A stretch of DNA of 64,000 nt from Eledone cirrhosa (lineage: Eukaryota), in assembly GCA_964016885.1 (NCBI GenBank), contig OZ024741.1, positions 365,490,001 to 365,554,000 on the forward strand, given 5' to 3'. Of this stretch, positions 5,370 through 54,379 are shown piece after piece. The position numbers and the translations under genes are program-made. Position 1 is the first letter of the stretch. Each line of letters starts with the position of its first letter. The notes under the pieces are model-generated. The model was not told where the DNA came from, did no database searches, and saw only the letters and a list, made by a program, of their open reading frames with translations.

Positions 5370-5438
5370 ATTTTATTATGCGCATTTCAAAAACAAACAT
5401 CATCATGCAATAATATTTGTGTTTTCATCAGATAAAAC
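5370..5438 (-). ncRNA. Type I hammerhead ribozyme, family A
   Basis: Reverse complement of 7191-7259. Confidence 0.85.
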
Positions 5439-7190
5439 AGGAGAACATGATATGAAGGCTAAAAAACACTTGTGGATAGTGCAGTTTTAAATCAACATAT
5501 GAAAAGTGGTTTTAGATTGATGTGTGATATTGGGAAAAATATTTTATTTAGAGGGGGGGGGCTGGAAAGGATGAAAAAGGGAAGGAGATGAGAGGGAGAG
5601 ATGAGTGATAGAGAGAAAGAGATAGTTTTTATAACTGAGAGGAGATATATTGTTTTACATAGAGAGGTTAAAAACCGTTGGAAGATAATGTATAAATTAA
5701 AAATAAAAAAAAATTTTGAAAATTAACGAAGGGAGGATATGTGCGAGGAAAAAATATTTTATTTAGGGAGGGGGGGGAAGGATGAAAAAAGGAGGAGATG
5801 ATAGTGAAGGTGGAGAGGGAGAGATGGGTGATAGAGAGAAAGAGATAGTTTTTATAACTGAGAAAAAGATGTATAGTTTTACATAGAGAGGTTGGGAACC
5901 GGTGGAAGATAATGTATAAATTAAAGGAATTTGAAAATTAACGAAGGGAATTTATGTATGAAGATAGAGAGAAAAAATAATAATTGTGGATGAATATTCT
6001 AACGTCAAAAAAAGAAATGTATGTTGATAAGATATTGTGGCAATTTAAAAATTAACGAAGAGAAAAATTATTAAGGTTTGTGTGTAGAAGGATTTGAGAA
6101 AAATAATGTGGAGTTAAAGTTTGTATATTGAAGGAATTGATAATATATGCGAATAAAGAGTTAATATGTATTAATAATGAGTTCGTTGATGGGGAGAAAA
6201 AAATAATAAATTAAAGATGAAATTGAGATTAAAAAGATTTATGATAGAGAGAAAAAATAATAATGATTGCGGATGAATATTCTAACGTCAAAACAACAAA
6301 TGTATATGTTATGATTTTACAAGGTGGAGATAGAATGAGGGTAATGAGTAAACAAGTATTATAGAGTGTATAATGCCCTTTAAAGTAAGGTAGATGGGTA
6401 TATTTTAAAGAGGTGTATGTATATGTGCCTTTGAGAAAAGATTCTAAATTGATAAAGAATTGAAGATTCTAAAGATTCTAAATTGATAAAGAATTGAATA
6501 TACAAACTTTAACTCCACATTATTTTTCTCAAATCCTTCTACACACAAACCTTAATAATTTTTCTCTTCGTTAATTTTTAAATTGCCACAATATCTTATC
6601 AACATACATTTCTTTTTTTAACGTTAGAATATTCATCCACAATTATTATTTTTTCTCTCTATCTTCATACATAAATTCCCTTCGTTAATTTTCAAATTCC
6701 TTTAATTTATACATTATCTTCCAACGGTTCCCAACTTCTCTATGTAAAACTATATATCTTTTTCTCAGTTATAAAAACTATCTCTTTCTCTCTATCACCC
6801 ATCTCTCCCTCTCCACCTTCACTCTCATCTCCTCCCCCTTTTTTCATCCTTTCCACCCCCCCTCCCTAAATAAAATATTTTTTCCTCGCACATATCCTCC
6901 CTTCGTTAATTTTCAAAATTTTTTTTAATTTTTAATTTATACATTATCTTCCAACGGTTTTCAACCTCTCTATGCAAAACAATATTTCTCCTCTCAGTTA
7001 TAAAATCTATCTCTTTCTCTCTATCACCCATCTCTCCCTCTCATCTCCTTCCCTTTTTCATCCTTTCCACCCCCCCCTCCCCCTCTCTAAATAAAATATT
7101 TTTCCCAATATCACACATCAATCTAAAACCACTTTTCATATGTTGATTTAAAACTGCACTATCCACAAGTGTTTTTTAGCCTGTTCTCCT

Positions 7191-7259
7191 GTTTTATCTG
7201 ATGAAAACACAAATATTATTGCATGATGATGTTTGTTTTTGAAATGCGCATAATAAAAT
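7191..7259 (+). ncRNA. Type I hammerhead ribozyme, family A
   Basis: GTTTTAT-CTGATGA-[stem II aaac.caaatattatt/gatgatgtttg.tttt]-GAAA-TGCGCA-TA-ATAAAAT. Stem I ttttat/ataaaa; palindromic stem III ATGCGCAT; predicted AUA site after 7252. Confidence 0.85.
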
Positions 7260-7662
7260 ACATGGAACTCCTTTAACCATCTTTTGATCTTATATTATGT
7301 ATACTCCAGTCCTACAAACTGTAGAGTGCTTCTTATCCGATATCTGCATTGCTTTATTGTACTACAATAAAACTCACCTCCTACATATATATATATATAT
7401 ATATATATATATATATATATATATATGTGTGTGTGTGAGTGTGTATATATATATATATATATATATATATATATATATATATATATATATATAAAGAATT
7501 AGTATATCTAGTAACATATATATACACAGATGCATACTTATGTTAGCAAATATATAGGTTTTGTCTTAGTAACTATGTGGTTCAATGCATGGGGTTGCAG
7601 AACAATAATATGAGAGACGTAAAATAAGAAAATTATAAAATTAACTTACTTACTTAAATTTC

Positions 7663-51008: not shown

Positions 51009-54000
51009 TAACATTATTCTAGAATTTAATTTAATTTAAATGTTAGTTAACCTATAAATTTAATTTAATTAATATTTTATTACAGATGAGAAAATATTAT
51101 GTAATCATTAATTTTGAAAAACCTTTAAATATTACTAATATATATTCAGTAATTTAATTTATAGATTAATTTTAACTTATTTTAACCTTTTATTATAATT
51201 TTTTAATTTAGTTTAACCTTTTATTATAAAATTTTTTTTATTATAATTCTTTTACAGATAAAATATAACAAAATAATATCATGTATCCTATGACGGAGAA
51301 AGAATTTTTAGTATTATTGACCTAATTAATATACATTTTGGAAATATATTTATTATTTGGTTTTAGCTTTAATCAACCTAAAACTTTAATTTTAATTTTA
51401 ATTTGCTTAAAATTAGTATCCTTGTACAGACGAATTGCAGAATTTCATGTAATCATAGAATGGGAGGTGTTTTTGGATATATACCTAGTTAATATATTCT
51501 GTGCAAATTTTTTGAAAAAGATATGTATATCTATATGTATATGTATATGTGTGTATTGTATGTGTATCTGTATGTATATTTATGTGACTATATATGTATG
51601 TATGTGTGTATATATATGTATATATATATATATATATATGTGTATGTATATGTATATGTATGTGTATGTGTATGTATATGTATGTGTATGCGTATTAATT
51701 TTGATTTTTATTTGCATATAATTATATTATGCTATTGATGAAATACAATATCTGCTTTATGTATTGTATACCTAATTAACATATACTAATTAACATATAC
51801 TATTGAAATAAATATATAATTTTTAACTTAGTTAACATATAATTTATATGCTACTACCGATGTAATACTTTATTTTATTTTTATTTGGGTTTCTTTTCCC
51901 TATTATTAACTTTAATTTAGTTATAATGTAATTAATAATCTACTACTGTTTGACTTCATAATTCTGCTTCAAATATTATAAACCTAACTAATTTACACCT
52001 TGGAAATCAATATGTTGACTATCTTTGGTTTAGTTGACATATGATTAATGGTATACTTTTTTATTTTGTGATGCATAGATTTCGTATTTCCTAGCATTGA
52101 AAATATGTAAGAACATACATTGAATTAAGATATGGAAAATATTATAGGTTTCTTGAAACATATATTTACTTTGATCCCCTTCTCCAAACCCCCCCCTTTC
52201 CCCCATACTATTATCATCTGTTTTTGTAAGTGTATATGTATGAATATATGGGTAGATGGGTGTCTATATAGTTTTTTTGGTATTTATTTCTAGATATAAA
52301 AATACATATATGAGCATGTAAATATGAATGTAAGATTGTGTGTGTATATATGATTGTACATACATATGTATGTATATGTATGTATATAGGTATTATATAT
52401 GTACGTGTATGTGAATGTGTGGTATATATATGTGTAGGTATATGTATATATGTGTGTGTATGTGTATGCTTGTATATAGGAATATATATGTGTGTATATA
52501 TGTATATATGTATATGCGTGTTTGCATGTATGTGTATATGGGTTTTGTATATATTTGTATGTCTCTCTATTTATATGTTTATCTTCGTATCTATGTGATA
52601 TATGTGTGTGTGTGTGCATGTATGCATATGTATGTGTTTGTGTGTGTTTGTATGTGTGTGTGTATATATATGTATGTATTTGCGCACACTCACATACACA
52701 TATATATATATATATATATATATATATGTGAGTGTGTATGTGTGTCTGTATGTGTGTGCGTGTGTATATATGTGTATATATATATATATGTGTATGTATG
52801 TGTATGTGTGTGTATATAGATATATATATATATATATATATATATATATATATATGTGTATATAGGTGTCTATGTGTGAATATATGTCTTTATTCGTATG
52901 TGTGTATTTATATATGTTTATATTTAAGTGTATGTATGTATGTGTATGTATGTATGTATATGTATGTGTATGTATGTATATGTGTATATGTGTGTATATA
53001 TATGTATATATATATATATATATATATATTATTCTTTATTATTATTGTAATATAACTTATGTGTATATGTGTATAAGTGAGGTTGTGTATGTATATATAC
53101 TATGTGTATATATAAGGGTAATGAAATGTATATATATATATATATATATATATGTGCATGTCTGTATTTTATGTGTGTGTGTATATATATATATGTGTAT
53201 GTGTGTATATATGTATGTATATATGCATATATGTGTACGTGTGTGTATGTTTATATATATATATATATATATATATATATATATATATATATATACATCT
53301 GGATGTTTGTATGTGTTTTCATGGTGGTATGAGTGTGGGATATATATGTTTATGTATAAGTATATGTATGTGTATGTATATATATATGAGTCTATGTGTG
53401 TGTGTGTATATATATGTATATATATATATATATATATATATATATATATATGTGTATGTGTGTATGTGTTGCGCGTGTGTGTGTCCGTATTTTTATCTTT
53501 TTATATGTGTATGTGTATGTTCGTGTAAATGTATGTGTGTGTATGACAGTATAGGTATGTGTGTATGTATGTATGTGTAGATATCTCTATGTGCGCGTAC
53601 ATGTATGTATGTGTATGTATATCTGTATGCGTATGTACATTATATTATATGTAATATATTTTATTGTTTTTATTTTTTTATTTTTCATAATTTATAGATA
53701 CATTTATATTAGGCTGTCTGGTCTGACAACCTAATACTGACCCCTCCCCCCCCCTCCCACCTAATTTCTGTATCTTGATCTTGAAATGTGTGTACCAGTG
53801 TGTTTATGTGAGTGACTTAATTTCTATTTGCTTATGATTTTATATCCACATATATAAATGTGAGTGGGGGGTGGGTGTGTGTTTGTGTGTTCGTGGTTAT
53901 GTGTATATTTATATATATACGCACATGTATGTGTGATTATACTGATATGTGTGAGTATGAAAAAAATATATTTATATGCTTGACTACATAAGTATCATTG

Positions 54001-54224
54001 CGTATCTTATCAGCGCATTAAGCTTACAGAGATATTAACCTTGAAATTTTTTATTTGCATCCATCTTTTTAGTATGCACATACATATTATACACACATTA
54101 TTGTAAAATGTGTGTAGGGTTTTACATGTATATACACACACCAAACTGCTTTTTAACCCTTTGTGTTTTCATTGGTCAATTTTGAACTGATATTTTGAAT
54201 TGTTGTTATTATCAATAAATATAC

Positions 54225-54379
54225 TTCATTATTTCTGAGGACGGCGTATATATGAGTTAGGTATGTATATTTAATCTTGATAATTTGTATAATTTTGTAT
54301 AATTTTGTACATAGATCTGTTAAATATGCATACCAATTATAGCACATATATGCCCTAGAAACGATCGTTAAATAGTGAA
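54225..54379 (+). ncRNA. Type I hammerhead with ~115-nt stem II, family E
   Basis: Same sequence as 48067-48221, 6158 bp downstream. Confidence 0.78.

Follow-up and report, generated by a model that had tools for sequence, protein, structure and literature searches.

Seventeen type I hammerhead folds are encoded in a 64,000-nt stretch of Eledone cirrhosa DNA (GenBank assembly GCA_964016885.1, contig OZ024741.1, positions 365,490,001 to 365,554,000 of the forward strand; hereafter the window, numbered from its first letter), and all of them lie near the 3′ ends of Penelope-like elements (PLEs) or of derivatives of such elements. The folds are real, abundant and under selection. As to their function, we consider it likely that they are selectively maintained in the terminal repeats of Hydra-clade PLEs and of non-coding derivatives, where they would self-cleave only slowly and in pairs that share a palindromic stem III. 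They extend the known biology of PLE hammerheads by a new variant in which domain II is long and made of several helices, C.A and U4A (A for U at position 4) are fixed, and a pseudoknot is likely; they do not constitute a new ribozyme class.

An earlier note made from the letters of the window had proposed 17 copies in seven families, and all of them were found at the claimed places and on the claimed strands (Table 1), whereas the families were reduced to five lineages, B and C being one and E and E′ another. The letters at positions 10.1/11.1 (C.A in B, C and E; C.U in E′; U.U in D and F; A-U in A) and the stem III palindromes matched the note, the cut sites predicted after 7252, 8143, 9438 and 48211 coincided with the H17 positions, and most sites were indeed NUU (11/17; the remaining six, in A and E′, were NUA). 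The core C3 U4 G5 A6 N7 G8 A9, G12 A13 A14, A15.1-U16.1, H17 is complete in 14 of the 17 copies; the three D copies have A4, which the formula CNGANGA of the note had masked. Stem I is of 5–10 bp, and domain II measures 36 nt in A, 49 in B, 51 in C, 116 in E, 99 in E′ and 96 in F. A palindromic, loopless stem III within the pseudo-long terminal repeat (pLTR) was found in A, B, C, E, E′ and F and not in D, which combines a 13-nt domain II (short stem II) with a hairpin stem III and the core CAGAAGA. G10.1-C11.1 occurs in 0/17 copies; in B/C, a G-C pair directly follows C.A in 22/24 aligned rows, so that the same letters can just as well be read as a G-C pair with an additional base on either side.

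A descriptor devised after the motifs were known (core, paired stem II base, palindromic or long stem III, H17, and stem I of at least 4 bp) recovered 16 of the 17 motifs and nothing else in the window, the missed one being the decayed D copy at 17248, and 100 dinucleotide shuffles of the window (500-nt blocks) gave a mean of 0.01 matches and a maximum of one. That standard descriptors overlook these folds was borne out, since Rfam gave none of the 17, not even the short D. At gathering score no match of any Rfam family was obtained in the window, and none in 10 loci; the Rfam hammerhead at E up to 10 gave none in 7520–8700 and 10850–11150; and in an E-value scan of the whole window, the 150 of 312 matches listed were all driven by microsatellites.

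Selection on the fold was evaluated by pair counts in B/C (24 sequences, 18 pairs), E (21 sequences) and F. In B/C, 90.8% of cells pair (slid controls, 37–52%), nine of the 18 pairs change on both sides, and there are 59 double-change cells, a level reached in 0/500 shuffles, which is no probability because the rows are related and the structure was derived from the same rows. One stem II pair of B/C occurs as A-U, G-C, U-A and C-G, and a pair in all four Watson-Crick forms is hard to explain without selection on pairing. E showed 11 double-change cells (0/500 shuffles) in four pairs (50/500). The three helices around the core, with stem I open, have strong covariation support in B/C, moderate support in E and weak support in F. 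Conservation of the core was examined in 19 distinct B/C copies picked by their flanks alone, in which 2.4% of core cells deviated from the commonest letter, compared with 15.2% elsewhere, and shared variants occurred at 0/13 core sites and at 38/109 other sites (p 0.006). The stem III palindromes form no hairpin, and their self-duplexes have energies of −6.4 to −10.5 kcal/mol; self-pairing without a hairpin is what the dimer model requires, stem III needing a second copy in all but D. The view of these motifs as PLE hammerhead folds with a dimer-type palindromic stem III, kept by selection, is upheld.

Domain II of B/C consists of two helices and a small terminal hairpin, that of F is a multi-way junction with two hairpins, and that of E is a long rod. 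In B/C, UUCUC right after the first 6-bp helix of stem II is complementary to GAGAA just 5′ of stem I, and a pseudoknot to this flank is likely: its middle pair is G-C in 18 rows, A-U in three, G.U in three and broken in none of the 24, and among the B/C matches listed an upstream GAAAA is accompanied by UUUUC. The same geometry recurs in two unrelated families (L138 and L080:2635). A permutation test across 14 clusters with long domains yielded p 0.0008, which is only a hint because three of the 14 are kin of B/C. F probably has such a pseudoknot as well, and its two strands are invariant. A candidate in A (AUCAUG/CAUGAU) competes with stem II and is without support. As a separate observation on domain II of E and E′, the C.C mismatch located three pairs above C.A persists in every E subfamily, even in a diverged one (L095), and A has C.U at that step.

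A, D and E appear to belong to the Hydra clade of PLEs, as judged from motifs in their open reading frames (ORFs): RWR and DKT were found in D and E, and CNCx5CP, CxxC and CxH in A and E, the N-terminal part of the reverse transcriptase (RT) being absent from A. The motifs RWR, DKT, CxCx5C, CxxC and CxH agree with this clade, as do the (TA)n targets and the absence of CxxC inside the GIY-YIG core, and the endonuclease of A matched GIY-YIG (PF01541) at E 0.0024, under the cut-off. Identity with Naiad was ruled out because the GIY-YIG endonuclease sits C-terminal. The insertions show the usual PLE anatomy, i.e. a (TA)n target, a partial tandem, an inverted 5′-truncated arm and an optional tail. 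B/C and F share this anatomy as non-autonomous derivatives or retrozyme-like elements: their units are non-coding (about 470–570 nt in B/C; about 990 nt in F, where this status rests on a longest stop-free frame of 82 aa in a 989-nt unit) and contain a single hammerhead, with up to four units forming an array, and no endonuclease of their own was found upstream in 44 B/C copies, two matches being A-type neighbours. Contigs of four sequencing runs (kind unrecorded) agree with the 561-nt tandem joint of the C unit, and a metagenome scan with a two-protein RT alignment gave no relatives.

In the host genome of 3.0 Gb, exact patterns gave about 75,000 matches together (B/C 10,215; E/E′ 11,299; A 22,451; D 27,995; and 3,174 for the F pattern, which covers F and a second lineage), and reversed-pattern controls gave 0–1. 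The second F-type lineage (F2: L149, L160, L161) has stem III ACAAUUGU, U.U and a domain II of 78–82 nt; one member, L161, follows a Hydra-type endonuclease at a distance of 620 nt, and F2 would therefore be an autonomous long-arm family. The hammerheads of the elements lie about 25–80 nt before the usual 3′ end. A, B/C, D and E have two preferred 3′ ends each, about 25–80 nt past the cut site and then about 80–190 nt further, and these tails exceed the 30–40 bp reported for PLEs. The B and C units share a conserved CACGTG box with ATTGATT after it (7909–7925 and 9760–9780), about 160 nt upstream of the core, a possible promoter element.

Ends of genomic copies were mapped in C and E copies chosen only by the sequence 3′ of the cut. 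Of 100 E arms, 24 (16 insertions) end 5–7 nt 5′ of C3, that is 140–142 nt before the cut, where fewer than one was expected, and 9/29 A arms end at −69/−70, these arms having been picked by an intact hammerhead so that ends at the cut site could not appear. Both sites read TC/AT (slash marking the end) and are initiator-like, and the promoters of PLEs are located in the pLTR; the pile-ups are probably transcription starts just upstream of the core. An extra G, the signature of a cap, precedes 8/21 such ends, which is weak evidence (p about 0.04 against a guessed 20%). The E-arm junctions at this place (L292, L293, L310, L311) show the first bases in short reiterations, resembling repeated template jumping at the end of an RNA. 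Since copies end at the start and not at the cut, we infer that the RNAs copied into the genome are mostly uncut at their 5′ hammerhead. This agrees with the Poseidon element PAc of the green anole, for which it is described that cleavage needs the protein of the element, that the uncut RNA is the substrate of insertion and that no reads ended at the cut (PMC11167929). Unlike in E and A, the 5′ ends in C occur all along the unit and form no peak at a start site, 36 of 100 copies reading on into the next unit and 64 ending. Two candidates in C were discarded: a footprint at the cut site, with two ends in the first 30 copies and none in 70 more, and a pile of four ends at −382, which is (TA)n microhomology.

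The mechanism that we propose runs as follows. Transcription would start within the terminal repeat, 7 nt (E) or 69 nt (A) ahead of the hammerhead, and the read-through RNA of a tandem would therefore hold two copies, which could pair via stem III over 6.2 kb in E and 561 nt in C. Loop II would have gained extra hairpins while the first 6–8 bp of stem II were retained, and stems I and II would be aligned, in B/C and probably in F, by a 5–6 bp pseudoknot with the flanking strand 5′ of stem I. PLE hammerheads of the minimal type are reported to cleave weakly as dimers (PMC4209133). Cleavage here may likewise be slow or assisted by protein, and would trim or circularise part of the RNA pool, with D as a short and likely monomeric member with the U4A core.

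Several observations tell against this reading. With regard to selection, F has four double-change cells (9/500 shuffles), none of them in the candidate pseudoknot, the 100 D copies listed show only decay, and conservation of the E core points the same way but lacks significance when shared variants are counted (p 0.16). With regard to bracing, the compensatory change in the B/C pseudoknot may have arisen just once, within one subfamily, and a candidate pseudoknot in E was rejected, being uncompensated in E′ (CUGA faces UCAA); it would sit upstream of the probable start. With regard to cleavage, only 2/64 C ends fall within 4 nt of the cut (0.6 expected, p 0.11), which is no cutting footprint, none of 100 E arms ends at the cut, and U4A in D may lower activity, judging from mutagenesis of minimal hammerheads. 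The pile-ups could also partly reflect joins between arms at AT palindromes; ends at the same E base, however, also abut (TA)n and unrelated arm positions, beyond such joins.

One alternative is that the fold is retained chiefly because it serves the protein of the element as a signal for binding or folding, and cuts rarely or never in vivo. Copy ends do not pile up at the cut site, C copies run through the hammerhead into the next unit in 36 cases of 100, U4A is fixed in D (about 28,000 copies), and catalytic mutants are described as having no effect on the in vitro insertion of another PLE (PMC11167929), all of which count in favour of such a signal. We nevertheless regard it as unlikely, because every catalytic position, G12 and G8 among them, has persisted across lineages while their stems turned over, H17 follows the rule for cleavable sites (U or A in 17/17; never G in 32 clusters, the latter by construction), and other families of the genome have compensated U3-A8 cores. 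The opposite alternative gives cleavage the central place: B/C and F would be full retrozymes, whose tandem transcripts are cut to units, ligated to circles and copied by Hydra enzymes. Their non-coding one-hammerhead units in arrays, the ends of C scattered as a circular template would give, and the description of animal retrozymes as non-autonomous PLE derivatives point this way, but uncut tandem read-through explains the same pattern, the missing start peak of C fitting circles and uncut multimers equally, and the retrozymes described have canonical hammerheads and shorter units. We think this possible but somewhat doubtful; it is compatible with slow cleavage in pairs and differs from it by making cleavage the central step.

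The earlier note had instead taken the motifs as a single distinct class, whose marks were the missing G10.1-C11.1, a long stem II, a stem III palindrome with no loop, and NUU sites. The persistence of C.A while neighbouring pairs vary (10,215 of 10,742 B/C matches, 95%; 29/30 sequences of the E cluster, and 40/41 E copies), the silence of Rfam and the recurrence of a long domain II in unrelated lineages speak for such a class. However, when 219 distinct hammerhead sequences, from loci chosen by our own patterns plus 200 kb of neighbouring DNA and so not random, were grouped into 32 clusters, its features assorted independently: domain II lengths form a continuum from 12 to 116 nt, eight clusters most often have G-C as the first stem II pair, some of them with a domain II of 53–58 nt, and U.U is also found with 12–14 nt. 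C.A, U.U and A-U differ by lineage, the sisters of A keep G-C or G.U (A-U 31, G.U 3 and G-C 1 in the cluster of A), and most of these states are on record for the clade. Twenty-five Hydra families are listed as canonical in File S2 of Craig 2021, in which our hand count of 10.1/11.1 gave U.U 14, G-C 7, G.U 3 and U.C 1, so that G10.1-C11.1 is lost in 18/25 with short stems, and the sites are NUU in 10/25 and NUA in 11/25; loopless palindromes and one C.A case (PLE-X1_cBra) are drawn there for other PLEs (PMC8557442). A covariance model of B/C found only the four B/C copies in the window and not A, D, E or F. The single class is thus quite improbable and already largely refuted. What stands of the claim that deviations are kept across unrelated stems is fixation at the level of the lineage, of C.A in B/C and E and of A4 in D (100/100 copies among the matches listed), U4A being sporadic in B/C (105 matches compared with 10,215, 1%).

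A bolder version of dimeric cleavage may also be considered, in which the PLE hammerheads of this clade, far from minimal, are the most elaborated natural type I hammerheads, braced by a pseudoknot, with up to 116 nt of extra domain II helices and a C.A or U.U base in place of G10.1-C11.1, located at the very start of a capped RNA, so that a lone 5′ copy could not cut until the 3′ copy, kilobases downstream, is made. We hold this to be rather speculative; if true, the ribozyme would be a sensor of completion and the extra helices a docking site for the protein of the element.

Compared with known systems, the elements resemble the Hydra PLEs of Craig 2021 in ORF motifs, (TA)n targets, 3′ position, type I order and near-palindromic stem III, and differ in a domain II of 36–116 nt with extra helices (12–26 nt in the Hydra rows, the longest of that table, about 50 nt, being two spike-moss elements marked as deviating) and in an E unit of 6.2 kb (<3 kb there); C.A is missing from its Hydra rows, and neither the pseudoknot nor U4A is listed in it (PMC8557442). 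With the minimal PLE hammerheads of Cervera 2014 they share the pLTR, the palindromic 15.2-16.2, the dimer model, an extra base after A9, and thousands of copies and many families per genome, whereas G10.1-C11.1 is kept there with a helix II of 7–8 bp and a helix I of 4–5 bp, as against 8–10 bp reached by stem I and a domain II many times longer here (PMC4209133). According to Perreault 2011, about 40% of hammerheads have a short Watson-Crick pseudoknot joining stems I and II, and U10.1.U11.1 occurs naturally at the base of stem II; loop II is small in those cases, whereas here the pairing strand lies in an internal loop or multi-way junction with further hairpins, and stem III is of the dimer type (PMC3088659). 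Animal non-LTR retrozymes are likewise tied to PLEs and made of non-coding units in tandem, each with one type I hammerhead (PMC7229834; bioRxiv 10.64898/2026.07.22.740005), and U.U at the helix II base is common to axolotl HHR_Amex2 (bioRxiv 10.64898/2026.07.22.740005), but the B/C and F units are longer (about 560 and 990 nt) and have a full PLE anatomy with inverted arm and tail, and a long domain II. PAc also has short and tailed 3′ ends downstream of its hammerhead, but belongs to another clade and has a short hammerhead overlapping the ORF start, and the tails here are of about 80–190 nt (PMC11167929). Within the parts of the PLE literature available to us, no report of pseudoknots in PLE hammerheads was found, nor a published description of a long multi-helix domain II in them; Lunse et al. 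2017, Arkhipova et al. 2017 and the supplements of Cervera 2014 and of the 2026 preprint may show the latter.

These results show that, in a single animal genome, hammerhead folds by the tens of thousands escape length-limited descriptors and Rfam. The folds offer natural, heavily covaried test cases for the limit of domain II growth, for the activity of C.A and U4A cores and for tertiary braces in PLE hammerheads; the end pile-ups give base-precise predictions of start sites, and a 5′ hammerhead usually left uncut on the inserted RNA would bear on the role of PLE ribozymes.

Table 1. Hammerhead folds, host elements, candidate pseudoknots and probable transcription starts in the window.
Feature	Position	Strand	Details
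Family A fold	5369–5439	−	C3 5431, H17 5377, site AUA
Family A fold	7190–7260	+	C3 7198
Family A fold	29277–29347	−	C3 29339
Family A fold	33658–33728	+	C3 33666
Family A fold	35469–35539	−	C3 35531
Family B fold	7663–7744	−	inverted arm; C3 7738, H17 7669
Family B fold	8068–8149	+	C3 8074, H17 8143
E′ fold	8390–8523	−	5′-truncated within stem I against (TA)n; C3 8515, H17 8398
Family C fold	9362–9443	+	C3 9367
Family C fold	9923–10004	+	C3 9928
Family D fold	10945–10995	−	C3 10990
Family D fold	14202–14252	−	C3 14247
Family D fold	17243–17293	+	decayed (stems I and III); C3 17248
Family F fold	38227–38351	−	C3 38346, H17 38232
Family E fold	40298–40452	−	C3 40442
Family E fold	48067–48221	+	C3 48077
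Family E fold	54225–54379	+	C3 54235
Family A, autonomous 3′ part	35411–37830	−	RT thumb and GIY-YIG endonuclease (36555–37085), about 1 kb upstream of hammerhead at 35531
Family C, partial tandem	9332–10202	+	561-nt non-coding unit; longest stop-free frame 54 aa
Family D insertion	10813–17426		broken Hydra-type RT/GIY-YIG ORF (14073–11966, −), upstream partial copy, inverted copy
Family E, inverted 5′-truncated copy	40026–45608	−	3′ tail
Family E, partial tandem	45608–54433	+	unit 6158 nt; pLTR, ORF, long 3′ untranslated region, second hammerhead
Family E ORF	48565–51008	+	RT and C-terminal GIY-YIG; frameshift near 50400
Likely pseudoknot, B	8060–8064 with 8089–8093	+	GAGAA with UUCUC
Likely pseudoknot, C	9915–9920 with 9943–9948	+	GAGAAU with AUUCUC
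Possible pseudoknot, F	38356–38352 with 38330–38326	−	UGGGC with GCCCA
Probable transcription start, E	48070	+	TTC/ATTATTT, 7 nt 5′ of C3; copy-end pile-up
Probable transcription start, E	54228	+	same place
Probable transcription start, E	40449	−	same place
Probable transcription start, A	33597	+	TTC/ATATG, 69 nt 5′ of C3; copy-end pile-up

Other features of the window were noted besides these. A decayed copy of a short hammerhead family with a U3-A8 core (UUGAAAA ... GAAACCGGU) lies at 39546–39585 (+), the family being represented at other loci as well (L037, L040, L041 and others), and intact U3-A8 copies and a second U3-A8 family are present in neighbouring DNA. Hammerhead look-alikes in scrambled order, in which CUGAUGA comes after a GAAA strand and after another strand complementary to what lies immediately 5′ of the core, were found at 8600–8665 (−), 8770–8835 (+), 21436–21520 (−) and 22165–22260 (+). 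Unrelated to the hammerheads, two LINE ORF2 copies (endonuclease, RVT_1, zf-RVT), both broken and with about 70% similarity to each other, occupy 24210–26556 (−) and 60743–63721 (−).

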